Shown here: in pieces, positions 325-16,057 of the stretch | Numbering within the stretch: position 1 is the stretch's first letter | How the letters are laid out: each line of letters starts with the position of its first letter | Origin: a virus | Taxonomy: Duplodnaviria; Heunggongvirae; Uroviricota; Caudoviricetes | Virus record (IMG/VR): IMGVR_UViG_2737471859_000001 | DNA: 16,446 bases | Strand: one strand, 5' to 3' | Made by a program: the position numbers and the translations under genes | The notes under the pieces: generated by a model | What the model was told of the DNA's origin: nothing | Database searches by the model: none | The model's input: only the letters and a program-made list of their open reading frames with translations

Positions 325-924
325 ATGCTTATTGGCTATGTCCGCGTATCAACAAATGACCAGAATACAGAATTGCAGCGTAACGCGCTGGAGTGCGCAG
401 GATGTGAACTGATTTTTGAAGATAAAATCAGCGGAACGAAATCAGCCAGACCGGGATTGAAAAAACTGCTCAGAACGCTATCAGAAGGAGATACGCTGGT
501 TGTCTGGAAGCTGGACAGACTGGGCAGAAGTATGAAACACCTGATCACGCTTATTGAGGAATTGCGGGAAAAAGGTGTTAATTTCCGTAGTCTGACGGAC
601 AGCATTGACACATCAACACCCATGGGGCGTTTCTTTTTTCACGTCATGGGAGCTTTAGCCGAAATGGAACGTGAATTAATTGTAGAGCGTACACTGGCCG
701 GGCTGGCAGCAGCACGCGCACAAGGACGCATTGGCGGACGTCGCCCGAAGTTGACAAAAGAACAACACGAGCAAATAGCGAGGCTGATTAAAAACGGTCA
801 TGACAGGAAACAACTGGCGATCATTTACGACATCGGCATATCGACGATTTATCGTTATCACCCTGTAGGCGATATACAGGCTGAAGAAACAACCAGGCAG
901 ACTCAGGAAAATGAAAACCGCTAA
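325..924 (+). CDS. Serine DNA invertase, Gin/Pin/Cin/Hin family
   Basis: 199-aa ORF starting MLIGYVRVSTNDQNT, with GDTLVVWKLDRLGRS and MGALAEMERELI motifs, near-collinear with Mu Gin as remembered. Confidence 0.93.
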   Translation: MLIGYVRVSTNDQNTELQRNALECAGCELIFEDKISGTKSARPGLKKLLRTLSEGDTLVVWKLDRLGRSMKHLITLIEELREKGVNFRSLTDSIDTSTPMGRFFFHVMGALAEMERELIVERTLAGLAAARAQGRIGGRRPKLTKEQHEQIARLIKNGHDRKQLAIIYDIGISTIYRYHPVGDIQAEETTRQTQENENR

Positions 925-943
925 TCTGACCATTAGCGGTTTT
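914..943. terminator. Bidirectional hairpin between convergent invertase and U genes
   Basis: Perfect 12-bp inverted repeat aaaaccgctaat / attagcggtttt with 6-nt loop; A-tract on one side and T-tract on the other; overlaps the invertase stop codon. Confidence 0.55.
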
Positions 944-950
944 GCGTTAA

Positions 951-1445
951 TCAAAACAGCCCTTTAACGGAGCTGGCCGCGCTGTTAAGGGATGATGTGA
1001 CCTTATCTTTGAAGCCGGACAGCATATCACTGAACGATGAGGATTGCAGGCGCTCCCGCAAATCCTCATCACATCGTTCAAGAGTCAGTGAAAATTCTAT
1101 CTTTTTCGCCTTACCGTAGCGATCAAACTCGGAACGGGTCGTATTCGTTTCAGTCAGTACATACATGCCGTAAATCTGCCCGACACCATCAATCAGAGGC
1201 CAGGGGCGTCCTGTATATGCCTGCGTGGTCAGCAACGAAAGCGACACTTCGCCACCTGTAATTTCAGGATAAAGCACGCCGGAAAGCACGATGCGATCAT
1301 CACCTGCGCCGATATACTGCCAGCTTGCTGAACGGTTAACGCGTTCATTTTTCACATGCCGCCAGTTTTTGTTTTGCTGTAACTGCTGATGCGGCAATGT
1401 GCGCAGCTCAAAAACAAACATGCCGTAGATCATCATCATGGCCAT
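951..1445 (-). CDS. P2 gpU-like tail protein
   Basis: 164-aa ORF; N-terminus and ..LSGVLYPEITGG..WPLIDG..IYGMYV.. resemble P2 gpU; sits directly after the tape measure gene. Confidence 0.8.
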   Translation of the reverse strand: MAMMMIYGMFVFELRTLPHQQLQQNKNWRHVKNERVNRSASWQYIGAGDDRIVLSGVLYPEITGGEVSLSLLTTQAYTGRPWPLIDGVGQIYGMYVLTETNTTRSEFDRYGKAKKIEFSLTLERCDEDLRERLQSSSFSDMLSGFKDKVTSSLNSAASSVKGLF

Positions 1446-1451
1446 GACTCC

Positions 1452-4268
1452 TCAATCTTTATCGTAAAAACTGCCACGTCCGGCACGGTCGCGTCGTTCC
1501 AATTCTGCCCTGACCATTTCACCGACCAGTTTCGCCAGTTCGCGGGGATTCTGCGTAACAACGTTATGCAGATGAACATGAATTTCACCGCCAAATCCGG
1601 AGACAACAGCCTCCCGGTTACGGGAAGTTGCAGGAACTGATGCCACTGGCGATCGTATGGCCTCCGCCACCGGGCGGGAGCTGGCCGCAACAACAGGGAC
1701 CAGCGCCGGAGGCAGAGGAGTCGGGACCACGGGTGTGATGTTGATTGCGGAAGCAGGCTTACTGACCTGCGCAATCTTCCGCTCCTGCCACTCCCCACGA
1801 ACAGCAAGTGCGCGGGGCAGGTTCTTAAAGACAATATCGCCGGGGCCAATGCGTTTTTTCGTCTCATCAACCAGCTTACCTGTGTTATCAGCAATTTTGC
1901 TGAGTCTGCGTAGCGTACCGGTATTGCTGTCTGTGAGCGGTTTGTTGTCTTTGGGTTTATCACCTCCGGTGCCATTGCCATTTTCCACAGGCTTCGGCGG
2001 ATTGATTTTCGCCAGGTCCCCCTGAAGCAAGGCAACCTTGTCCTGAAGAATGGCCGCACGCTGTGCGTCTTCGATTTTCTTGCGCGCCCTTTCCGCTTCA
2101 TCCGGAAGGACGCCAAGTTTTTCAAGTATCCACGCCAGCGTATCCAGTAGCATTTTTGCAGGCGTCAGAACAAGTTGTAACGCACCGCCAAGAACGTTAC
2201 CGAATATCTCGCCAGCACTGGTACATTTATCCAGCGTTTCCTTGCTGGACTCCATCGGTGACAGCAGCGATTTAAACCAGTTAAACACCTGGCTGATCCC
2301 GCTTCCGATTGCGTCAAAAACAGGACCAAACCGTTCAAAGGTTTCGCGCAACGGGGTCAGCCTTTCCATAATCCCGCCGAACACCCCGGCAAAAAATGCC
2401 CTGATGGGATCCCAATATTTCCAGATAAGAATGGCAGCTCCGGCAAGCGCAGCCACGATAAGACCAACCGGACTGAACAGCGCCCCGATAGCACCTCCCA
2501 GCAAAGAAACGGAACCCGTCACCATTCCCCATAGTGCTGGCAGGACCCTGACAGCATTCATTGATCCGGTCAGGAGGGAAAAACCAAGACGCAGTTTTGC
2601 CAGCGGACCAGCAAGCACACCAATAGCCAGCGACAACGAGCCAACCGTTGCAGTCATTGCCAGCAACGCACCGCCTGCTATCAGTAGCTGGCGCGTCAGT
2701 GCGGGATGGGCCTGCGCCAGCGCCGTCACCTTTGATACCACACGCGTGAGCCACTGCGTGACAGAACGCAGCGGACCGTCAATCAGATCTGCAATGCGGA
2801 TGCGCAACCCTTCCCATGCACTGCCGAGTGATTTCAGATCGCCGTCAAGGTTGTTGGCCATAACCTTTGCTGTGCGTTCAGCCTCACCGCGCGCGCCTTC
2901 AAGTTCTTTTCTCAGTTTGGGTAAGGACCCGTCACCCGCTGCATCAACGAGCGCCATAAACGATGTGAAAGCCTCTTCCCCGGCGATGTCCTTAAAGAAG
3001 GATACCCGGTCAACTTCCCCGTATTTGCGGGTGGCTTTATAAAGGTCGGCCAGCACATCCTCCATCGGGCGCATTTTGCCGTTCGCGTCAGAAACTGCCA
3101 CACCAAGCTCTTTCAGCGCCTCTGCTGCTGCCTTTGGCGGTGATGCCAGACGAGCCAGGCTGGCACGCATTGCCGTCCCGGCATCACTCCCTCTGATACC
3201 CATATTCGCCAGCACGCCCGCCATCGCTGCGGCCTGCTCCAGCGATATTCCCAGCTTACCCGCCACCGGACCTGCATATTTCATGGTTTCGCCCAGTGCG
3301 CGAAGGTCAGTGTTGGTACGGGTAAACGCTGCGGTGAGTGTGTCACCAACCCGGTCCATCTGGTCAGCAGAAAGGCCGAACTGCGTCAGGATATTTGAGC
3401 CAATATCCGCCGTCTCGCCGAGATCCATGCCGCCAGCCGTTGCCATGCTCAGCACGCCCGGAAGCGCAGCCTGAATGGCCTGCGGTGTGAAGCCAGCCAT
3501 TGCAAGAAATGCCTGTCCACTGGCGGCATCGCCTGCGGTGAACTGCGTTTCAGAGCCAAGTTTTAACGCCTGCTCACGCAGCGCCTTAAACTGTGGGCTG
3601 TTCTGATCGATTCGCGTCAGTGCCTGAACGCGGGACATCTCTTTCCCGAACCCGATCGCAGGCTGCAAAAAACGCCCGGCAGCATAGCCGCCAGCCGCTG
3701 CCGCACCAATTGCCAGCGCACCACCTGTTTTCAGTTTTCCAGCAGTTTCCTGCGCGCGCGAATACCGCTCACGCGCCCGCGTTACACGCGCAAGCGTCTG
3801 CCGTTCGCGTTCAAGCTGGTTGTTGTACTGTTCGGTGCGTCTGATGGCCTGCTGGATGGTGTTATCGCTGCCTGTCAGGGAAATGCCGTGGCGTTTCAGC
3901 TCTCCGCCAAGCTCCCGCATTTTCTGAATTTCCCGTGTGCGCGATTCATTCAGGCGTTCAAGCCGGGTGCTTAACTGCTGCATCAGCTTTTGTTGTTTTT
4001 CGCTGAGCACTGTACCCGTGCGTTGTAACTGATTAAGGGCGTTAAGCTGGCGTCGTGCTTTCACGATGCTCGCATCCGCTTTACTGACAGCGTCACGGGC
4101 GCGCTCAAATGAACGCGCCTGACGCTCGAGATTTTTGATCGCCCCCTGCGTTCGCTGGATGGAGTCACCAAACTGCCCCATCAGGCGGCGGGCGTTTTCG
4201 GCAGGCCGGGTCAGCCTGTCAACGGCGCTGAAAGCGACCCGGATATCAAGAGTCTTCATTATCTGCAT
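1452..4268 (-). CDS. Tail tape measure protein (P2 gpT-like)
   Basis: 938-aa ORF, coiled-coil-rich N-terminal half, long hydrophobic Gly/Ala-rich central segment, position between E/E' and U. Confidence 0.9.
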   Translation of the reverse strand: MQIMKTLDIRVAFSAVDRLTRPAENARRLMGQFGDSIQRTQGAIKNLERQARSFERARDAVSKADASIVKARRQLNALNQLQRTGTVLSEKQQKLMQQLSTRLERLNESRTREIQKMRELGGELKRHGISLTGSDNTIQQAIRRTEQYNNQLERERQTLARVTRARERYSRAQETAGKLKTGGALAIGAAAAGGYAAGRFLQPAIGFGKEMSRVQALTRIDQNSPQFKALREQALKLGSETQFTAGDAASGQAFLAMAGFTPQAIQAALPGVLSMATAGGMDLGETADIGSNILTQFGLSADQMDRVGDTLTAAFTRTNTDLRALGETMKYAGPVAGKLGISLEQAAAMAGVLANMGIRGSDAGTAMRASLARLASPPKAAAEALKELGVAVSDANGKMRPMEDVLADLYKATRKYGEVDRVSFFKDIAGEEAFTSFMALVDAAGDGSLPKLRKELEGARGEAERTAKVMANNLDGDLKSLGSAWEGLRIRIADLIDGPLRSVTQWLTRVVSKVTALAQAHPALTRQLLIAGGALLAMTATVGSLSLAIGVLAGPLAKLRLGFSLLTGSMNAVRVLPALWGMVTGSVSLLGGAIGALFSPVGLIVAALAGAAILIWKYWDPIRAFFAGVFGGIMERLTPLRETFERFGPVFDAIGSGISQVFNWFKSLLSPMESSKETLDKCTSAGEIFGNVLGGALQLVLTPAKMLLDTLAWILEKLGVLPDEAERARKKIEDAQRAAILQDKVALLQGDLAKINPPKPVENGNGTGGDKPKDNKPLTDSNTGTLRRLSKIADNTGKLVDETKKRIGPGDIVFKNLPRALAVRGEWQERKIAQVSKPASAINITPVVPTPLPPALVPVVAASSRPVAEAIRSPVASVPATSRNREAVVSGFGGEIHVHLHNVVTQNPRELAKLVGEMVRAELERRDRAGRGSFYDKD

Positions 4269-4514
4269 TCCCGCTGCGAAGTGCCGCCCGCTCGCGCCAG
4301 CTAACCACTTCGCCGGGCGTCATCATGAAGATTTCGGCGGGCGACCAGTTAAAAATGGCGGCAATATCCGCCACCAGATCTTCGATGTGCTCAAAGCACA
4401 CCAGGGTGATTACGCTGCCGTCTCCTGCACGCTCTTCGCGCCAGAGTCTGGCTCGCTCATAAAATTTACAGCCACAGCGCACAACTGAATAAAATCGCGT
4501 GACGACATTTTTTT
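4246..4514 (-). CDS. E' extension of tail assembly chaperone, expressed by -1 programmed frameshift from E (E+E' fusion)
   Basis: The -1 frame opens at a TAA that overlaps the A7 run (plus-strand T7 at 4508-4514) inside E and runs to 4246, overlapping the T start by 23 nt. Same arrangement as P2 E/E' and lambda G/GT. Confidence 0.6.
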
Positions 4515-4784
4515 AATCATCACTTCATCCAGTCGTGGCGAGGTCACGCGAGGCAACAGCGTAAACATGGTATCCGCTTTCAGATTCAGCACATCAGACA
4601 GCGACAGACCACGCAGGGATCCAGCCTGCTCAATAGCCCCGGTGATCTCCACATACGTGATTTTTTCGCCACCACGCTCAATTGGTCGGGTCAGTTTTAC
4701 GCCACGTTCGACAGCCATATCCTCACCTGCCGTCACATCATCCGCCACGGTGTTATTCCGGGTTTCAGTATTGATGTCTTTCAT
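4410..4784 (-). CDS. Tail assembly chaperone (P2 gpE-like)
   Basis: 124-aa ORF immediately upstream of the tape measure gene; contains the A7 slip site at codons 91-92. Confidence 0.75.
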   Translation of the reverse strand: MKDINTETRNNTVADDVTAGEDMAVERGVKLTRPIERGGEKITYVEITGAIEQAGSLRGLSLSDVLNLKADTMFTLLPRVTSPRLDEVMIKKMSSRDFIQLCAVAVNFMSEPDSGAKSVQETAA

Positions 4785-4839
4785 TAGTTGTCTCCTTTTC
4801 AGTCAGAGGCGACGCACTGCGCCGCCTGCATATTACTTA

Positions 4840-5352
4840 TCAGCCAAGCCCAAGCGCGGAACGGATACGGTCAGGCACAATGTCCTTGCCGTCCTTCCGG
4901 TAGATGTGGTTCAACAGGTCGATTTCCCACAGCGGGCGATCGTTAACGCTCAGCTTGTAGTAGGTGTTTTTGACAGCGTAAGTGTGTGATGTGGCTTCGC
5001 CCTGTTTGGCTTCCCCCATATCAATTTCCGTCACACGCCCGCGCATCTCGATTTCATACAGATCGCTTTCTGCATCGGTGTAGTATTCACCCGCAAAACG
5101 CAGCAGCGTGCCGTCAATCGTGCCGCCATATTTAAGGAACAGCGCACGAACAGCTCCCCCCATGACAAAACTCGCATCAAGCGCGGAGTCGTCCAGACCG
5201 AGATCAATACTTACCGCCCCCATCATGCCACCACCACGATAGCTGTCGGTTTTGCGCGTCAGTTTGGGCGGCGTGACGGATGTCACTTTGCCCACTTCGT
5301 TTTCACCATCCACAAACAGCGTAAAAAAGCGAAGATGTTTTGGTACAGCCAT
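4840..5352 (-). CDS. Contractile tail tube protein (P2 FII-like)
   Basis: 170-aa ORF with LPKLTRK..YRG.G..DLGLDD..RFAG..MRGR..EID.GE.KQGE pattern; start overlaps the sheath stop (TGATG). Confidence 0.9.
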   Translation of the reverse strand: MAVPKHLRFFTLFVDGENEVGKVTSVTPPKLTRKTDSYRGGGMMGAVSIDLGLDDSALDASFVMGGAVRALFLKYGGTIDGTLLRFAGEYYTDAESDLYEIEMRGRVTEIDMGEAKQGEATSHTYAVKNTYYKLSVNDRPLWEIDLLNHIYRKDGKDIVPDRIRSALGLG

Positions 5353-6536
5353 CAGGCACCTCCCAGCACCGCAAATGCGGGACCAAAGAATTCATCAGTA
5401 AACGTCTGGTAAAGCTCCATGTCTTCCAGTGGCGGAACGGGCGTATATTTGTAGCGAATACGCACACGTCCCTGACGTAAATCCGTGGTGCCGTTATCCA
5501 CCACGTCATACCAGCACTCCGCACCAATCAGTTTCCCGGCAGTAACCAGCGAATCCAGTTTTGCCCTGATGGCGCTGATAACATCCTTCACGTTCGCAGG
5601 TGTCAGTGGACTGTCGATGGTTTCAAACTGCGCTTCCGCAATTGAATCAGCCAGCACCTGTGCGGTTCGGGTATACACCTCAAAGATGTAGGCGTTCGTT
5701 TCCGGTGTGCGGTTGCCCCAGAAGCGGAACCCGTTGCGGCGAATGATGGTGGTGATTTCCTTGTTGTTGAGGCTGTTGGCGTCACTGTCCTCGGCCTGTA
5801 ACGACCAGAAAACATGTTTTGACATGCCCAGGACATTTTTAACCGGAACATTGGACAGCGATTTGTGCCAGCCCTGCTCATGGTCAATATACGCACGAAG
5901 GCCGCACGCATAAGCAGGCGCGGGGAACGTTTCGTTTTTACCACTTTTCGGGTTGTAAGCGATAAAATCCGGCCACAGAAGCATCACCTCACGTTCGTTG
6001 AATTTCTGGCGGTAGGTAATCGCCTCAGCCATCGTGTTACAGCCGTGACATGAGGCATACACAAACGCGCGCAGTTTACCCGCAATCACGCACAGGGATT
6101 TTGTTACCGCCTCCGTGTCCAGCTCCGGCGCGGCCAGAATACGCGGACGGTATCCGATGCTTTCATCCTGCTCTGCAACAAGCAGCGCATACATCCCCGT
6201 ATAGCTGCCGTCATCCTCAGAACCACCGATAACCAGTTGATCCTGCGTCTTTCCGTCTTCTTCTTTGTGTTCAGCCACGCGAACGACGATCACCTTTGTG
6301 CTCACCTGGTCTGCGATGGCCTTAAGCGCACGATAAAGCGTCCCCGTTGTCCCGCATTTTCCCAGCACATCATTGACGCGGGTCAGCAGTGTGGGCTTGT
6401 TCAGCGGGAACAGCTTCGCGTCCGCATCATCCGCCGTTGCCACGATACCGATAACGCTGGAATCAACATCGTTAATCGCTGTTACCAGGTCGGTATTTTC
6501 CGTAACACGGGCACCATGAAAACGAGTTTCACTCAT
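5352..6536 (-). CDS. Contractile tail sheath protein (P2 FI-like)
   Basis: 394-aa ORF with ADDADA..FPLNKP, KLRAF, GWHKSLSNV, IRRNGFRFWGNRT, YTRTAQV and YTPVPPLE motifs typical of P2 FI. Confidence 0.93.
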   Translation of the reverse strand: MSETRFHGARVTENTDLVTAINDVDSSVIGIVATADDADAKLFPLNKPTLLTRVNDVLGKCGTTGTLYRALKAIADQVSTKVIVVRVAEHKEEDGKTQDQLVIGGSEDDGSYTGMYALLVAEQDESIGYRPRILAAPELDTEAVTKSLCVIAGKLRAFVYASCHGCNTMAEAITYRQKFNEREVMLLWPDFIAYNPKSGKNETFPAPAYACGLRAYIDHEQGWHKSLSNVPVKNVLGMSKHVFWSLQAEDSDANSLNNKEITTIIRRNGFRFWGNRTPETNAYIFEVYTRTAQVLADSIAEAQFETIDSPLTPANVKDVISAIRAKLDSLVTAGKLIGAECWYDVVDNGTTDLRQGRVRIRYKYTPVPPLEDMELYQTFTDEFFGPAFAVLGGA

Positions 6537-6693
6537 AGCTTCAGCCCCTTGTATCCGTTAAATGATTCGGCAACAATCATCACCCACCACGCGCGTAATC
6601 TCACCCCTGCGCCGTTCTCCCGCCACGGCGACAACAAAAAGCAGTAACCCCCTCCGCACGCACATGCGACCATGCCGCACAGGGAGGGAACAG

Positions 6694-7803
6694 ATGACCG
6701 ACACCACCATGCAATTGCTCAGTCAGGGCACAGACCCCGTGAAAATGCCGGATTTTGATATTCTCGCGGAGGGTAAAGCGCTGTCAGGCGTGGCAGAGCG
6801 CCTGATGAGCCTGTCACTGACCGACAACCGGGGATTTGAGGCGGACCAGCTCACCATCACGCTGGATGATGCGGATGGTCAGTTGCAGCTACCGCCACGG
6901 GGCGCGCGCCTGACGGTTCTCATTGGCTGGAAAGGAGAACCGCTGACAGAAAAAGGCACTTACATTGTTGATGAAATCGCTCACGAAGGACCGCCGGACA
7001 GGCTGACTGTTTCAGCCAGAAGCGCAGATTTTCGGGATGAATTTAACGTTAAACGTGAAGTATCCTGGCATGATGTGACCGTTGAGCGCGTGGTATCTGC
7101 CATCGCTCATCGGTATGGCCTGAAACCGCAAATCAGCGAAATGCTGATGGATATCGAAATCGACCACGCCGACCAGACCGAAGAAAGCGACATGTCCTTC
7201 CTTACGCGCATGGCGGAAATGTTGGGCGCAATCACCACAGTAAAAAGCGGTAATCTGTTATTCATCATGCCCGGTGGTGGCGTGAACGCGCAGGGCCAGC
7301 CGTTGCCCTCGTTTGCCATCACACGCAGCAGCGGCGATCGCCATCAGTTCCGCATTGCTGACCGCGAGGCGTATACGGGTGTACGCGCCTACTGGCTTGA
7401 TCTGAATTACGGGAAAAAGAAAAAAGTCAGCGTGAAACGCCGCAAACCGCCAAAACCCAAAAAGGAGAAAAGCAGCAGCCGTGAAGGTGATTATATGGAA
7501 GGCGCGGAAGGCAATGTGTTTGTGTTACGCAAGACTTATCAGAACGAGCAGGCAGCAAGACGCGCAGCGGCGGCAAAGTGGCAGCAGCTACAACGCGGAG
7601 CCGCATCATTCTCCATCATGCTGGCACGTGGACACGCAGAACTCTACCCCGAAATGCATGGCACGGTAACAGGATTTAAAAGCGAGATTGATAATCAGGA
7701 CTGGATTATTGCGAAAGCCGAGCACACCATTGATAACAGCGGCTTTACCACGCAGCTTGAGCTTGAGGCAAAAATCCCGGAATGGATAGCGGAAACAGAG
7801 TGA
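6694..7803 (+). CDS. P2 gpD-like late control / tail protein D
   Basis: ATG at 6694 preceded by agggaggg; the listed ORF start at 6562 is an in-frame upstream extension. Product (~369 aa) resembles gpD family and is followed by ogr as in P2. Confidence 0.8.
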   Translation: MTDTTMQLLSQGTDPVKMPDFDILAEGKALSGVAERLMSLSLTDNRGFEADQLTITLDDADGQLQLPPRGARLTVLIGWKGEPLTEKGTYIVDEIAHEGPPDRLTVSARSADFRDEFNVKREVSWHDVTVERVVSAIAHRYGLKPQISEMLMDIEIDHADQTEESDMSFLTRMAEMLGAITTVKSGNLLFIMPGGGVNAQGQPLPSFAITRSSGDRHQFRIADREAYTGVRAYWLDLNYGKKKKVSVKRRKPPKPKKEKSSSREGDYMEGAEGNVFVLRKTYQNEQAARRAAAAKWQQLQRGAASFSIMLARGHAELYPEMHGTVTGFKSEIDNQDWIIAKAEHTIDNSGFTTQLELEAKIPEWIAETE

Positions 7804-7845
7804 GGAACTTAGAATAGCGGCAGCACCACGTTAAGGGAGGTCGCT

Positions 7846-8106
7846 ATGTTCCGTTGTCCGCTTTGTGGCGCATCTGCCCGTATCCGCACCAGTCGCCCGG
7901 AAAATGATTCAAACACCGTGCGGCAAAAGTATTACCAGTGTAACAACCTGGAATGCGGCGTATGCTTCTCAACACTGGAAGCTTTCCATAAATTCACATC
8001 GAAACACGCCTCCGGCGTTCACTCATCAGAAGGTATCCCGTGGCATGATCTGCCAGCTTCACACAGGGGAAACAATCAGATGAGTTTGCCTTTACCTCAG
8101 AATTAA
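7846..8106 (+). CDS. ogr: Ogr/Delta-family zinc-finger late transcription activator
   Basis: MFRCPLCG...RTSR...YYQCNNLEC matches the P2 Ogr C4 zinc-finger pattern; aagggagg RBS; 86 aa versus 72 aa for P2 Ogr. Confidence 0.85.
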   Translation: MFRCPLCGASARIRTSRPENDSNTVRQKYYQCNNLECGVCFSTLEAFHKFTSKHASGVHSSEGIPWHDLPASHRGNNQMSLPLPQN

Positions 8107-8297
8107 CAGGCAGAATTGCCGGAGTAACAAAAAAGCGATAGATTACGCGCGGGTGCCTTTCGGCTGATGGTCGGAGGGAATACCCGAAGGCCAGATGTGG
8201 AAAGGCCCCGGAAAACATTTCTGTTTAACCGAGGCCCTAACATATCTACCTTAAGCAAGTGATAGGTTAGCGCCTCTCCAACAAAGGAGCAAGCGCT

Positions 8298-8438
8298 ATG
8301 TCGCAAAAATCGCTTACAGCCATCACATTCTGCGTGACGGTAATCCTCATCATCTGGATGCTGCACGGTTCGCTGTGCGAAATACGGATGAGCTTCTGGG
8401 GAGCGGAGTTTGCGGCGTTCTTACAGTGTAAGCAGTAA
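8298..8438 (+). CDS. Hok/Gef-family-like small membrane toxin (type I toxin candidate)
   Basis: 46-aa ORF MSQKSLTAITFCVTVILIIWMLHGSLCEIRMSFWGAEFAAFLQCKQ: one TM helix followed by the SLCE...E.AAFL.C pattern seen in HokA/HokB-like proteins; aaggag SD 8 nt upstream; GC hairpins downstream. Confidence 0.55.
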   Translation: MSQKSLTAITFCVTVILIIWMLHGSLCEIRMSFWGAEFAAFLQCKQ

Positions 8439-8573
8439 GGAAACCGCGACGGGGGAGCAATCCCCCGTCAATCGGTTGCCAGGGTATGGTCGAAGTGGCA
8501 CCCAAATTTAAATTGAGGCCCACCAGTAAGAGTGGTGGGCTTAACGCTTATTTAAATTTGAAAGGAACTCTTT

Positions 8574-8870
8574 ATGAGTGAAATGGTATTTTGTCGCGGA
8601 TGCGGCAAGGAAATACATAAAGATGCCACATCCTGCCCCAATTGTGGAGCACCTCAAAGAACAGCAAGTTCAAAAAGCAGAATGACAGCCGCACTACTGG
8701 CTTTCTTTTTAGGTGGTCTTGGTGCACACAAATTTTATTTAGGTAAAGTGGGGCAAGGATTCCTTTACCTTATTTTTTGCTGGACATTCATTCCGGCAAT
8801 CGTGGCATTTATTGAGTTTTTTATCTATCTATGCACCTCTGATGAAGACTTTGCCCGCAAATATGGCTAA
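8574..8870 (+). CDS. Zinc-ribbon + TM2-domain small membrane protein
   Basis: 98-aa ORF: N-terminal CxxC-x15-CxxC (CRGCGK...CPNCG), then two hydrophobic helices around an HKFYLG motif (TM2 signature DRFYLG); AT-rich relative to neighbours; followed by a clean intrinsic terminator. Confidence 0.75.
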   Translation: MSEMVFCRGCGKEIHKDATSCPNCGAPQRTASSKSRMTAALLAFFLGGLGAHKFYLGKVGQGFLYLIFCWTFIPAIVAFIEFFIYLCTSDEDFARKYG

Positions 8871-8896
8871 TGCCTAGTGGGCGAATCAGAATGACA

Positions 8897-8930
8897 AACC
8901 CGCAGCGTAAAAACTGCGGGTTTTCTTTTT
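8897..8930 (+). terminator. Rho-independent terminator after the TM2 gene
   Basis: aacccgcag-(loop)-ctgcgggtt followed by ttttcttttt. Confidence 0.65.
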
Positions 8931-8980
8931 GTCACCCTCACAAATGAGGGTAACACCACTCATAAGTAATAGGCATAACA

Positions 8981-9018
8981 GATCGATGCAATAAATCCGA
9001 TCGATAAAAACGATCGAT
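8981..9018. repeat. Three direct GATCGAT motifs (each with a GATC Dam site and an ATCGAT palindrome) in the com-like promoter region
   Basis: GATCGAT at 8981-8987, 8999-9005 and 9012-9018; a TATCAT -10-like hexamer at 9023-9028. Confidence 0.8.
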
Positions 9019-9062
9019 TTGTTATCATATCAGCAGCAGTAACCACACAAGAGGTGCCGCAA

Positions 9063-9260
9063 ATGACGCAAAATGTACGATGCAAAAATTGCAACAAACT
9101 ACTTGCCCGCGCCTCATTTCACTACATTGAAATAAAATGTCCGCGCTGCAAAACACTTAACAAGATAACGAGAGCCATCGAGCACCCCACACACATGAGG
9201 AGTTATGACCGTGGGGATCGCAATCCAGCACCAACCAGCACATACACCGGAACACACTAA
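9063..9260 (+). CDS. com: Mu Com-like zinc-finger protein (putative translational activator)
   Basis: MTQNVRCKNCNKLL..IEIKCPRCK..EHPT closely matches Mu Com as remembered; gagg SD 8 nt upstream of ATG 9063 (the ORF track starts at an upstream GTG, 9054); 3' end overlaps the methyltransferase ORF. Confidence 0.8.
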   Translation: MTQNVRCKNCNKLLARASFHYIEIKCPRCKTLNKITRAIEHPTHMRSYDRGDRNPAPTSTYTGTH

Positions 9261-10011
9261 GGTTTATCAGACTGACAATGCCACGCTCTGTCGTGGGAAT
9301 GCGCTGGAAATATTGCCGCTGATTGAGCCAGAAAGCATTGATGCCTTAATCACTGACCCACCTTACAGTTCGGGGGCGACACACAAGGCCGGACGCACCA
9401 ACCAGGGCAGCCATGCAAAATATCTGAACGGCGAGAACCTTCACCGCTTTGATGGGTTCGCGGGTGAAAACATGGACGCCCGTTCGTGGGCTTACTGGAC
9501 ACAATTATGGATGGCACAGGCACACCGCGCAGTCAGGCCGGGCGGTTATGCCCTGGTATTTACTGACTGGCGACAACTACCAGCTTTAACCGATGCGTTT
9601 CAGGCCAGTGGCTTTACATGGCGCGGCATCATTGCGTGGAACAAGGGGAGGGGGTCACGAACACCACATACCGGGTATTTCCGGCATCAGTGCGAATACA
9701 TTGTCTGGGGCAGCAAAGGCCATTTAGATAAATCGCCTTCGGGGCCGTTCGACGGCTGCATGACGTTCCCGGTTATCCCGTCAAAGAAAATGCACCCGAC
9801 CGGAAAACCAGAAGAACTAATGGCAGAGCTGGTCAGAACTGCGAATAGTGGCGGAACAGTCCTTGATCCTTTTATGGGGTCAGGAACAACGGGTGTGGCT
9901 GCACTGAAAGCAGGGCGAAAATTTATTGGTATAGAAACCAGTGATCATTATTTTGAGGTAGCAGCGCAGCGGCTTCGGGGGACTATTACCACAACCATTT
10001 CGACTACATAA
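9205..10011 (+). CDS. DNA methyltransferase, N6-adenine/N4-cytosine beta-class (DPPY ... FxGSGTT order); probably N6-adenine
   Basis: ITDPPYSSG (motif IV) precedes DPFMGSGTTGVAALKAGRKFIGIE (motif I), as in CcrM/PvuII-type enzymes. Start codon uncertain: ATG 9205 has a short SD spacing and overlaps com by 56 nt. No restriction endonuclease gene nearby. Confidence 0.85.
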   Translation: MTVGIAIQHQPAHTPEHTKVYQTDNATLCRGNALEILPLIEPESIDALITDPPYSSGATHKAGRTNQGSHAKYLNGENLHRFDGFAGENMDARSWAYWTQLWMAQAHRAVRPGGYALVFTDWRQLPALTDAFQASGFTWRGIIAWNKGRGSRTPHTGYFRHQCEYIVWGSKGHLDKSPSGPFDGCMTFPVIPSKKMHPTGKPEELMAELVRTANSGGTVLDPFMGSGTTGVAALKAGRKFIGIETSDHYFEVAAQRLRGTITTTISTT

Positions 10012-10113
10012 GACAAAGCCCGCATTTTTTGCGGGCTTGTCTATCCTTACTGATGTGGACAGTTTGTGGATGTTTATAAGAAATAAGCTAATAGAAACAA
10101 TCTGTTATCTTTA

Positions 10114-10137
10114 CAAAAAACGCGCCCGAAGGCGCGT
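10114..10137 (-). terminator. raiA rho-independent terminator
   Basis: Minus-strand hairpin acgcgcc-ttcg-ggcgcgt followed by TTTTTT, 25 nt downstream of the raiA stop. Confidence 0.7.
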
Positions 10138-10161
10138 TGGCGATACACTCAATATAAAGGA

Positions 10162-10557
<396 letters not shown>

Positions 10558-13354: not shown

Positions 13355-13416
13355 CCTAAAGAATCAAGACGATCCGGTACGCGTGATTTTCTTTTCACAT
13401 TAATCTGGTCAATAAC

Positions 13417-13445
13417 CTTGAATAATTGAGGGATGACCTCATTTA
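13417..13445 (+). promoter_or_regulatory. sigma-32 heat-shock promoter of clpB
   Basis: CTTGAA (13417-13422), 14-nt spacer, CCTCATTTA (13437-13445); matches the sigma-32 consensus CTTGAAA / CCCCATNT. Confidence 0.6.
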
Positions 13446-13483
13446 ATCTCCAGTAGCAACTTTGATCCGTTATGGGAGGAGTT

Positions 13484-16057
13484 ATGCGTCTGGATCGTCT
13501 TACTAATAAATTCCAGCTTGCTCTTGCCGATGCCCAATCACTTGCACTCGGGCACGACAACCAATTCATCGAACCACTTCATTTAATGAGCGCCCTGCTG
13601 AATCAGGAAGGGGGTTCGGTTAGTCCTTTATTAACATCCGCTGGCATAAATGCTGGCCAGTTGCGCACAGATATCAATCAGGCATTAAATCGTTTACCGC
13701 AGGTTGAAGGTACTGGTGGTGATGTCCAGCCATCACAGGATCTGGTGCGCGTTCTTAATCTTTGCGACAAGCTGGCGCAAAAACGTGGTGATAACTTTAT
13801 CTCGTCAGAACTGTTCGTTCTGGCGGCACTTGAGTCTCGCGGCACGCTGGCCGACATCCTGAAAGCAGCAGGGGCGACCACCGCCAACATTACTCAAGCG
13901 ATTGAACAAATGCGTGGAGGTGAAAGCGTGAACGATCAAGGTGCTGAAGACCAACGTCAGGCTTTGAAAAAATATACCATCGACCTTACCGAACGAGCCG
14001 AACAGGGCAAACTCGATCCGGTGATTGGTCGTGATGAAGAAATTCGCCGTACCATTCAGGTGCTGCAACGTCGTACTAAAAATAACCCGGTACTGATTGG
14101 TGAACCCGGCGTCGGTAAAACTGCCATCGTTGAAGGTCTGGCGCAGCGTATTATCAACGGCGAAGTGCCGGAAGGGTTGAAAGGCCGCCGGGTACTGGCG
14201 CTGGATATGGGCGCGCTGGTGGCTGGGGCGAAATATCGCGGTGAGTTTGAAGAACGTTTAAAAGGCGTGCTTAACGATCTTGCCAAACAGGAAGGCAACG
14301 TCATCCTGTTTATCGACGAATTACATACCATGGTCGGCGCGGGTAAAGCTGATGGTGCAATGGACGCCGGAAACATGCTGAAACCGGCGCTGGCGCGTGG
14401 TGAATTGCACTGTGTAGGTGCCACGACGCTTGACGAATATCGCCAGTACATCGAAAAAGATGCTGCGCTGGAACGTCGTTTCCAGAAAGTGTTTGTTGCC
14501 GAGCCTTCTGTTGAAGATACCATTGCGATTCTGCGTGGCCTGAAAGAACGTTACGAATTGCACCACCATGTGCAAATTACTGACCCGGCAATTGTTGCAG
14601 CGGCGACGTTGTCTCATCGCTACATTGCTGACCGTCAGCTGCCGGATAAAGCCATCGACCTGATCGATGAAGCAGCATCCAGCATTCGTATGCAGATTGA
14701 CTCAAAACCAGAAGAACTCGACCGACTCGATCGCCGTATCATCCAGCTCAAACTGGAACAACAGGCGTTAATGAAAGAGTCTGATGAAGCCAGTAAAAAA
14801 CGCCTGGATATGCTCAACGAAGAACTGAGCGACAAAGAACGTCAGTACTCCGAGTTAGAAGAAGAGTGGAAAGCAGAGAAGGCATCGCTTTCTGGTACGC
14901 AGACCATTAAAGCGGAACTGGAACAGGCGAAAATCGCTATTGAACAGGCTCGCCGTGTGGGGGACCTGGCGCGGATGTCTGAACTGCAATACGGCAAAAT
15001 CCCGGAACTGGAAAAGCAACTGGAAGCCGCAACGCAGCTCGAAGGCAAAACTATGCGTCTGTTGCGTAATAAAGTGACCGACGCCGAAATTGCTGAAGTG
15101 CTGGCGCGTTGGACGGGGATTCCGGTTTCTCGCATGATGGAAAGCGAGCGCGAAAAACTGCTGCGTATGGAACAAGAACTGCACCATCGCGTCATTGGTC
15201 AGAACGAAGCGGTTGATGCGGTATCTAACGCTATTCGTCGTAGCCGTGCGGGGCTGGCGGATCCAAATCGCCCGATTGGTTCATTCCTGTTTCTCGGCCC
15301 AACTGGTGTGGGGAAAACAGAGCTTTGTAAGGCGCTAGCGAACTTTATGTTTGATAGCGACGAGGCGATGGTCCGTATCGATATGTCCGAGTTTATGGAG
15401 AAACACTCGGTGTCTCGTTTGGTTGGTGCGCCTCCGGGATATGTCGGTTATGAAGAAGGTGGCTACCTGACCGAAGCGGTGCGTCGTCGTCCGTATTCCG
15501 TCATCCTGCTGGATGAAGTGGAAAAAGCGCATCCGGATGTCTTCAATATTCTGTTGCAGGTACTGGATGATGGGCGTCTGACTGACGGGCAGGGGAGAAC
15601 GGTCGACTTCCGTAATACGGTTGTCATTATGACCTCTAACCTCGGTTCCGATCTGATTCAGGAACGCTTCGGTGAACTGGATTATGCGCACATGAAAGAG
15701 CTGGTGCTCGGTGTGGTTAGCCATAACTTCCGTCCGGAATTCATTAACCGTATCGATGAAGTGGTGGTCTTCCATCCGCTGGGTGAACAGCACATTGCGT
15801 CGATTGCGCAGATTCAGTTGAAACGTCTGTACAAACGTCTGGAAGAACGTGGTTATGAAATCCACATTTCTGACGAGGCGCTGAAACTGCTGAGCGAGAA
15901 CGGTTACGATCCGGTCTATGGTGCACGTCCTCTGAAACGTGCAATTCAGCAGCAGATTGAAAACCCGCTGGCACAGCAAATACTGTCTGGTGAATTGGTT
16001 CCGGGTAAAGTGATTCGCCTGGAAGTTAATGAAGACCGGATTGTCGCCGTCCAGTAA
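13484..16057 (+). CDS. clpB: AAA+ disaggregase ClpB (Hsp100)
   Basis: Starts [10 protein letters not shown] after a gggaggag SD (the ORF track's 13472 ATG lies inside the SD); two Walker A boxes ([16 protein letters not shown]); internal GTG at 13928-13930 is the known ClpB80 start. Confidence 0.97.

Follow-up and report, generated by a model that had tools for sequence, protein, structure and literature searches.

The backward-lying block of tail genes that runs from the sheath to gpU is how P88-like prophages (Xuanwuvirus) and their relatives in the P2 family are normally laid out, an arrangement fixed long ago. The 16,446-nucleotide stretch in which we analysed it (the window) contains the right end of a P88-like prophage (Xuanwuvirus, Peduoviridae) in an E. 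coli chromosome. Taken as a whole, the arrangement is very probably explained by a fixed inversion of the pF-FI-U segment, with a terminator at one of the resulting junctions and a shared two-way Ogr site at the other. With moderate confidence we further propose that this ancestral inversion made a second two-way promoter in the style of P2's pP/pO, in which one Ogr dimer site would fire both units.

The window covers the right third of the prophage alone, adjoining the host genes raiA-bamD-rluD-yfiH-clpB. Its cargo, past about 8500, comprises a TM2-domain protein and a com-like regulator with a DNA methyltransferase. An ORF at 10037-10555, considered as a restriction-enzyme partner of the methyltransferase, was discarded because it is antisense to host raiA, and the sole match of an Rfam search was the host sRNA RyfD.

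Homologues of FI, FII, E/E', T, U, D and Ogr are all present according to Pfam, the match of E being weak and below the cut-off (Table 1). U, T, E/E', FII and FI occupy the minus strand from 951 to 6536, with the invertase to their left and D-ogr (6694-8106) to their right, both on the plus strand; ORFs and Pfam thus bear out the opposite orientations and the 157-bp divergent FI/D spacer of the preliminary description. The P2-type single-strand FI-FII-E-T-U-D operon has no counterpart here. The E' frame overlaps the 3' end of E in another frame, and the same pair is annotated in relatives. The D protein is 99% identical to a protein cluster with 6,052 member sequences, and its start is the ATG at 6694 in the alignment and annotation of all relatives, preceded by the RBS GGGAGGG; a longer D ORF from 6562 was rejected, since it would cross conserved promoter elements and the relatives start at the aligned ATG. 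The zinc finger of Ogr has, in translation, the spacing CX2C-X24-CX4C. The invertase converges on U, and P88 and P88_4B11 annotate the same gene as a DNA invertase. Just upstream of it, adjoining the variable tail-fibre segment, lies a crossover-like sequence (AAACC-N4-GTTT core, about 247-269).

Table 1. Features of the tail block and its two junctions.
Feature	Positions	Strand	Evidence or remark
DNA invertase, Gin/Hin type	325-924	+	Pfam Resolvase 6e-52 and HTH_7
U (gpU tail protein)	951-1445	-	PF06995, 8e-39
T (gpT tape measure protein)	1452-4268	-	PF10145, 9e-59
E' (GpE-domain frame)	4246-4482	-	PF06528, 2e-12
E (gpE tail chaperone)	4410-4784	-	weak TAC_7, 4.7e-4, under Pfam cut-off
FII (gpFII tail tube)	4840-5352	-	PF04985, 2e-45
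FI (gpFI tail sheath)	5352-6536	-	PF04984, PF22671, PF17482
Divergent FI|D spacer, 157 bp	6537-6693		predicted two-way Ogr-dependent late promoter, P2 pP/pO type
-10-like GATGAT, putative leftward FI promoter	6576-6581	-	34 nt from box; predicted start ~6569
Ogr-type dyad box TCT-N12-ACA, then ACAAAAAGC	6616-6633		one mismatch vs TGT-N12-ACA
-10-like GACCAT after TGn, putative rightward D promoter	6668-6673	+	34 nt from box; predicted start ~6680
D (gpD, tail/baseplate hub, 'late control D')	6694-7803	+	PF05954
ogr (Ogr/Delta-like zinc-finger late activator)	7846-8106	+	PF04606, 5e-14

The layout recurs throughout the close relatives. P88, P88_4B11, Shae_phiSM, PhiR44_2, Chuche and others each align to the window in one colinear megablast piece that spans both junctions at 94-96% identity, and their annotation places the genes on identical strands. 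Against P88 the window is colinear at 94-96% identity in a single piece of 8.2 kb, in keeping with the genus Xuanwuvirus; both P88 and phiSM form plaques (PMC5285337, PMC6456863). Compared with P88, P88_4B11 and Citrobacter phage Shae_phiSM, positions 326-8503 are colinear, a range that takes in the two junctions with the 157-bp spacer as well as the invertase, D, ogr and hok. The differences lie in the tail-fibre variable segment, which makes up the left 240-325 bp, and in the cargo past about 8500. Among complete E. coli genomes, 94 match at least 80% of the window at one place, and 1,358 of 5,426 (about a quarter) have the FI|D junction in contiguous form; of the 1,411 E. coli genomes in which the pieces occur, none matches a synthetic P2-like U-D junction contiguously. 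All 80 IMG/VR loci likewise have FI on the minus and D on the plus strand, though that scan gave only relatives 98-99% identical and so added replicates, not diversity. All the close relatives examined repeat the arrangement, which is to be read as homology and not as chance. The preliminary description had offered a lineage-specific layout and a fixed inversion as two of its options, and both proved right: aligned relatives share the gene order and orientation as their normal layout, which is constant among them, and the apparent anomaly disappears. The layout is the reference arrangement of at least three ICTV genera; the papers on P88, phiSM, SEN4/5 and Serratia PP4 make no mention of an inversion.

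Further away in the family both orientations occur. Among 80 genome loci, the 41 from Enterobacterales (D at least 70% identical) are inverted and the 37 from Burkholderiales (D 41-46%) are colinear. The 41 inverted prophages span about 20 Enterobacterales genera and take in Senquatrovirus and Reginaelenavirus; SEN5 (D 63%) and Kp4871-3 (D 70%) are inverted as well. The colinear layout is found in P2, the Fels-2-like SEN8, Cartapus, ENT90, and Burkholderia, Mannheimia and Shewanella phages. Since the distant P2 relatives are colinear, the inversion is probably an old, derived trait of one clade, the direction of change resting on this outgroup distribution. The segment comprising the pF promoter, FI, FII, E/E', T and U would have been inverted, and then fixed, in the ancestor of a large Enterobacterales P2-family clade that would take in Xuanwuvirus, Senquatrovirus, Reginaelenavirus and many unnamed prophages. 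The event would have left two junctions, one where the invertase (or gpG) and U converge and one where FI and D diverge.

At the convergent junction, a perfect 12-bp inverted repeat (914-943; AAAACCGCTAAT-6 nt-ATTAGCGGTTTT) overlaps the stop codon of the invertase. It can fold into a 12-bp stem, of which only 4 pairs are G-C, around a 6-nt loop, with an A-run and a T-run at its flanks; read along the plus strand, TTTT closes the stem and GCGTT comes next. Its free energy is -16.9 kcal/mol on the plus and -15.6 kcal/mol on the minus strand (z about -4.1 on both), and a terminator scan calls it on the minus strand as a stable hairpin with a T-run. Most relatives carry unrelated hairpins right after the U stop codon, many of them with flanking A/T runs. 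We infer that 914-943 is an intrinsic terminator that works in both directions; the junction at which invertase and U converge would thus be closed by a hairpin able to stop transcription from either side. The analysis does not support the repeat as an inversion breakpoint or recombination site: it is a local terminator-like hairpin, the hairpins of relatives are unrelated to it, and it has no partner at the other junction, none of the 25 longest of 179 inverted-repeat pairs linking 900-960 with 6530-6700.

Other accounts of the orientation fare worse. That the 5.6-kb block was mis-oriented during genome assembly, the third option of the preliminary description, has nothing positive to recommend it beyond the difference from P2, and its probability is negligible: both junctions recur in independently sequenced phages, in the 1,358 complete E. 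coli genomes, in the 80 IMG/VR contigs and in prophages of about 20 other genera, and the alternative junction occurs in none. Hardly more credible is a programmed switch, in which the adjoining invertase flips FI-U and the window captures one of two states. The invertase gene does abut the block, and an inverted repeat does stand at one block boundary, but that repeat is the self-contained hairpin described above, no inverted repeat common to both junctions appears among the best 25 of the 179 pairs, and the flipped state is missing from every one of the 1,411 E. coli genomes, against 1,358 with the observed junction. Moreover, SEN5 and most of the genome loci have no detectable invertase beside U and yet show the same orientation, and a flip would cut D off from any promoter. 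We therefore rejected the switch. Like Gin/Hin/Cin segments, the window has an invertase of this family and a crossover-like site by a variable tail-fibre segment; unlike them, FI-U lacks such sites at its flanks, and its flipped state never turned up. If the invertase is active here, its target would be the tail-fibre cassette on its left. A less far-fetched possibility, still improbable, is that the block was imported backwards from another phage lineage instead of being inverted in place, as P2-family phages are mosaic and exchange tail modules. Against such a replacement, the block and D are similarly diverged from colinear relatives (FI 47%, FII 47%, U 48% and D 53% identical to those of Cartapus), the identities of FI and D vary in parallel within the inverted clade, and the geometry of pF has been kept with FI.

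For the divergent junction, the preliminary description held that D needs its own promoter in the spacer, which the conserved geometry reported here makes probable; it also found no Ogr box there, which is correct for the exact TGT-N12-ACA string and incorrect for the conserved TCT-N12-ACA variant of the window, in which a C replaces the consensus G of the left half-site. Exact matches number two in the window (5797 and 9138), against 4.2 expected by chance, and none falls in the spacer. We compared 34 distinct spacers through an alignment, a geometry table and a box-anchored conservation profile. T[G/C]T-N12-ACAA is present in 32 of them, with the canonical TGT in 14 of the 32. Of the 32 relatives, 31 have the left hexamer (A2, T6) at exactly 34 nt from the box and 30 have the right one (A2, T6) at that same distance, the remaining two having it at 35 nt; the TG upstream of the right hexamer is conserved. 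These distances are fixed while the intervening sequence varies among relatives. Both -10 hexamers of the window match TATAAT weakly, and a generic sigma-70 scan gave no site in the spacer and three in 8.6 kb, under the shuffled mean; such a lack is expected of activator-dependent promoters and is not positive evidence for them. The predicted D start falls just before the RBS.

This spacer looks like a two-way late promoter of a type already mapped in P2. In the P2 RefSeq record pP, which starts at 3016, and pO, which starts at 3127, share one activator site (3057-3087); the centre of its box is 55.5 bp away from either start, the starts are 111 bp apart and the arms measure 34 nt. P2's own boxes are imperfect (TGT-N12-CCA), and an exact TGT-N12-ACA search of P2 gave five matches, none at a late promoter. 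By analogy with pP/pO, the 34-nt spacing in the window implies a box at about -55.5 from the predicted starts. Box and hexamers match the P2 geometry, and we infer a single box behind both the leftward transcription of FI and the rightward transcription of D-ogr. The dyad-symmetric Ogr box, carried along with FI, would now stand midway between two -10 elements, and a single Ogr-bound site, about 55.5 bp from both predicted starts (about 111 bp apart), would activate FI-U to the left and D-ogr to the right, much as P2's single site serves its mapped divergent promoters. Colinear relatives keep the box, the 34/35 nt and the hexamer upstream of FI, which suggests that pF moved with the inverted block. 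The same motif, GTTCT-N12-ACAACAAAAGC (a TCT-type box), recurs in the P|O spacer of P88, whose Ogr-type boxes are confined to this spacer and FI|D, both of them divergent; none was found upstream of R. Two two-way promoters may therefore serve much of the late regulon. Our literature searches for Ogr late-promoter papers found only the one on Smp131, which gives one box to both PP' and PO', and none describing a second two-way late promoter in this clade.

A competing reading of the spacer would have the box serve the FI operon alone, with D-ogr expressed from an Ogr-independent promoter, constitutive or otherwise regulated, in the right half. We consider this unlikely, though it has more in its favour than the alternatives to the inversion. 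The strongly conserved CGCGCGC-TG-n-hexamer on the right arm is of extended -10 type and finds no mirror image on the left arm, promoters of this type can function without an activator, and ogr needs some Ogr-independent expression to begin the late cascade. What speaks against it is the position of the right hexamer, held at 34 nt from the box in nearly all of these divergent relatives while the sequence between varies: 34 nt is the spacing of the mapped pO and pP of P2, and such phasing would be unexpected for an independent promoter.

If a single site does serve both directions, D and the activator gene would form a short, separately tuned and positively autoregulated transcript, and the clade would illustrate how an operon can be split by inversion and keep its regulation when the activator site is dyad-symmetric. 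On the practical side, the promoter map (box and two predicted starts, Table 1) could be used to annotate late promoters in P88-, SEN4- and 3LV2017-type prophages. Anyone searching for Ogr boxes would do well to admit the TCT variant and to rely on the box-34 nt--10 geometry in place of the exact TGT-N12-ACA string, from which P2's own promoters deviate too.

Set beside the P2 F operon (pF-FI-FII-E-E'-T-U-D, then ogr), the window has the same genes, the same internal order within the block, ogr downstream of D, and a pF-type box and -10 upstream of FI with equal spacing. The differences are the inversion of FI-U and the setting of D: in P2, D ends the F operon and overlaps U, whereas here it lies 5.2 kb from U, points away from FI and has its own RBS and a predicted promoter. 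The two D proteins share 48% identity. Compared with pP/pO, the box-to-hexamer distances are equal, the starts being mapped in P2 and predicted here; the P2 pair drives packaging and head genes (P,Q / O...), and the second copy in the window would do the same for tail genes (FI-U / D-ogr).

The inverted tail-gene layout of this prophage is real and not unusual. ORF listing and Pfam scans bear out the strands and coordinates of the preliminary description (see table). In a megablast search against phage genomes, P88 and P88_4B11 (Xuanwuvirus), Citrobacter phage Shae_phiSM, PhiR44_2, Chuche and others match window 326-8503 as single colinear pieces of 94-96% identity that include both junctions of the FI-U block, and their annotated strands are those of the window (invertase plus, U to FI minus, D and ogr plus). 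P88 and phiSM are viable and form plaques (PMC5285337, PMC6456863). The FI|D junction (6237-6993) is contiguous in 1,358 of 5,426 complete E. coli genomes, and FI on the minus strand next to D on the plus strand was found in 80/80 IMG/VR relatives, whereas in the 1,411 E. coli genomes containing both pieces a synthetic P2-like junction (the end of U joined to the start of D on one strand) was never contiguous. A lineage-specific layout or a fixed inversion, as initially suggested, is thus right, the same strands being found in all IMG/VR and matching phage relatives. The third suggestion, an assembly artefact, is excluded by the recurrence of both junctions across these phages, E. coli genomes and IMG/VR relatives, and an actively flipping FI-U segment by the lack of the P2-like junction in the E. 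coli genomes with both pieces.

Features of the window and the evidence or remarks attached to them
Feature	Position	Strand	Basis or remark
Gin/Hin-type invertase	325-924	+	ORF, Pfam
gpU	951-1445	-	ORF, Pfam
Tape measure gpT	1452-4268	-	ORF, Pfam
GpE-domain frame for E'	4246-4482	-	ORF, Pfam
Chaperone gpE	4410-4784	-	ORF, Pfam
Tube gpFII	4840-5352	-	ORF, Pfam
Sheath gpFI	5352-6536	-	ORF, Pfam
-10-like hexamer GATGAT	6576-6581	- (reverse complement)	faces FI
Putative Ogr box, TCT (6616-6618)-N12-ACA (6631-6633)	6616-6633		one mismatch
-10-like hexamer GACCAT	6668-6673	+	TGn before; faces D
gpD	6694-7803	+	ORF, Pfam
Ogr/Delta zinc-finger gene	7846-8106	+	ORF, Pfam; CX2C-X24-CX4C
Hok/Gef-type toxin locus	8130-8479		hok ORF about 8298-8438
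Zinc-ribbon/TM2-domain protein	8574-8870		cargo
Small Com-family regulator	about 9054-9260		cargo
Type II-like N6/N4 DNA methyltransferase	9205-10011		cargo

To place the inversion among relatives, D homologues were aligned, 80 genome loci were fetched and the tail proteins of the window were located in them by tblastn. All 41 informative Enterobacterales loci (D identity 70-98%) have the window layout, including Salmonella, Serratia, Klebsiella, Raoultella, Enterobacter, Kosakonia, Citrobacter, Edwardsiella, Erwinia, Pantoea, Mixta, Pectobacterium, Brenneria, Symbiopectobacterium and others. The P2 order, with FI to U and D on one strand, occurs in each of the 37 Burkholderiales loci (D 41-46%). 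Among named phages, SEN5 (Senquatrovirus, D 63%) and Kp4871-3 (Reginaelenavirus, 70%) are inverted; Cartapus (Elveevirus, 53%), SEN8 (Felsduovirus, 53%), M16-3 of Shewanella (Arsenicumvirus, 50%), P2 (Peduovirus, 48%), ENT90 (Entnonagintavirus, 48%) and phiMhaA1 of Mannheimia (Baylorvirus, 42%) are colinear. From this distribution, the inversion is an old trait, derived within a single Enterobacterales clade spanning at least three ICTV genera. Compared with colinear relatives, the block proteins and D show roughly equal divergence, which fits inversion in place better than the import of a foreign module. As the layout already stands in annotated reference genomes, the finding is an ordinary one; no comment on it was found in the literature searched.

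Some loci have peculiarities of their own. In L140, an IMG/VR locus (IMGVR_UViG_2654587728_000014, 430-7585), the tape measure gene is split at residue 446, and T(446-938)-U-invertase is inverted relative to T(1-446) with a second invertase copy (86% identity) in between: either a secondary rearrangement, the lysogen being defective or double, or an assembly error. Two Firmicutes-labelled assemblies (L004, Vagococcus sp. WN89Y; L043, a Planococcaceae MAG) carry this prophage region of E. coli type (97-99% protein identity), likely owing to contamination or mis-binning.

The ogr gene is followed by a hok/mok toxin, a TM2-domain protein and a com-like regulator accompanied by a DNA methyltransferase, and these in turn by the host genes raiA, bamD, rluD, yfiH and clpB, so that the window covers the right end of a prophage integrated in an E. 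coli chromosome. The toxin locus, directly 3' of ogr, is common to many Stx-converting phages (85% identity) and annotated as MokW-like/Hok in relatives; Rfam made no call for Sok RNA there at the gathering threshold. The cargo at 8574-10011 is unlike that of P88 and contains no restriction partner for the methyltransferase; a candidate ORF (10037-10555, plus) overlaps host raiA (10162-10503, minus) in antisense. The host sRNA RyfD (RF02768, 125 bits) lies at 13365-13503, upstream of clpB. At the other end, matches to the invertase regions of other phages begin at about 236-248, a Gin/Hin crossover-like sequence (TCCTAAACCAACGTTTAAGAAAA, about 247-269) lies just upstream of the invertase, and bp 1-240, with no match in any listed phage, probably represent the beginning of an alternative variable tail-fibre segment lying on the minus strand.

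The repeat of the left junction (914-943, AAAACCGCTAAT-6 nt-ATTAGCGGTTTT) had been taken for a possible breakpoint. It is instead a local, terminator-like hairpin, with folding energies of -16.9 and -15.6 kcal/mol for the two strands (z about -4.1 each), and is called by a terminator scan. It overlaps the invertase stop codon, lies 7 nt past that of U, and is bordered by an A-run at one end and a T-run at the other, the pattern that a two-way terminator would show between convergent genes. In most relatives, hairpins of unrelated sequence, many with A/T flanks, lie just after U. No inverted repeat joins this junction to FI|D among the 25 longest of 179 repeat pairs; a recombination scar or site is rejected.

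An alignment of 34 distinct FI|D spacers from the inverted clade has a central conserved block, T(G/C)T-N12-ACAACAA. That the window spacer lacks an Ogr box, as previously stated, holds for the exact consensus TGT-N12-ACA and fails once a single mismatch is allowed. The box is present in 32/34 spacers (TGT in 14, TCT in 18; the remaining two have CCT). A -10-like hexamer (A2, T6) lies exactly 34 nt to its left in 31 of these 32 and exactly 34 nt to its right in 30 (35 nt in the other two), the intervening sequence being variable. We propose that Ogr would bind this single dyad and activate RNA polymerase at both flanking -10 elements, the leftward output being FI-FII-E/E'-T-U and the rightward one D-ogr. 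Read-through from D into ogr would keep up the positive feedback that in P2 comes from transcription reading on from pF. Both the leftward transcript and that of the convergent invertase/tail-fibre genes would end at the 914-943 hairpin. The main rival is an Ogr-independent rightward promoter, and the conserved CGCGCGC-TG-n-hexamer does resemble an extended -10; the strict 34-nt phasing of that hexamer to the box argues against this rival. A box-like GTTCT-N12-ACAAC on the coding strand inside gpT (about 2159-2176, minus; also in P88 at 28825) is probably due to chance, though it might conceivably act as an internal late promoter ahead of U. What the putative second two-way late promoter adds is modest and testable.

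Its model is found in P2, whose reference record has one "activator binding site; pO, pP promoters" (3057-3087) between the mapped starts of the P operon (3016, minus) and the O operon (3127, plus). The P2 box, TGT-N12-CCA at 3063-3080, is centred 55.5 bp from each start, with hexamers TAGCCT and GAAACT 34 nt from either end, the same box-to-hexamer distances as in the window spacer. By analogy, the window starts would lie near 6569 and 6680, 111 bp apart, the latter immediately before GGGAGGG, the ribosome-binding site of D. In P88 (14152-14305 and 18979-19115), an extended Ogr-type box occurs solely in two spacers, P|O and FI|D, and none was seen upstream of R/S/V, the place of pV in P2; in Xuanwuvirus, a single long rightward operon may comprise the head-lysis-baseplate-fibre genes. 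In this viable phage, the TCT-N12-ACAACAAAAGC box of the window recurs in the P|O spacer, its hexamers 34-35 nt away, which suggests that TCT is a working form. In colinear P2, SEN8 and Cartapus, FI is preceded by the box, 34/35 nt and a hexamer, as far from the FI start codon as in the inverted clade; pF thus moved along with the inverted block. In Smp131, too, a single box has been assigned to both PP' and PO' (PMC3931495).
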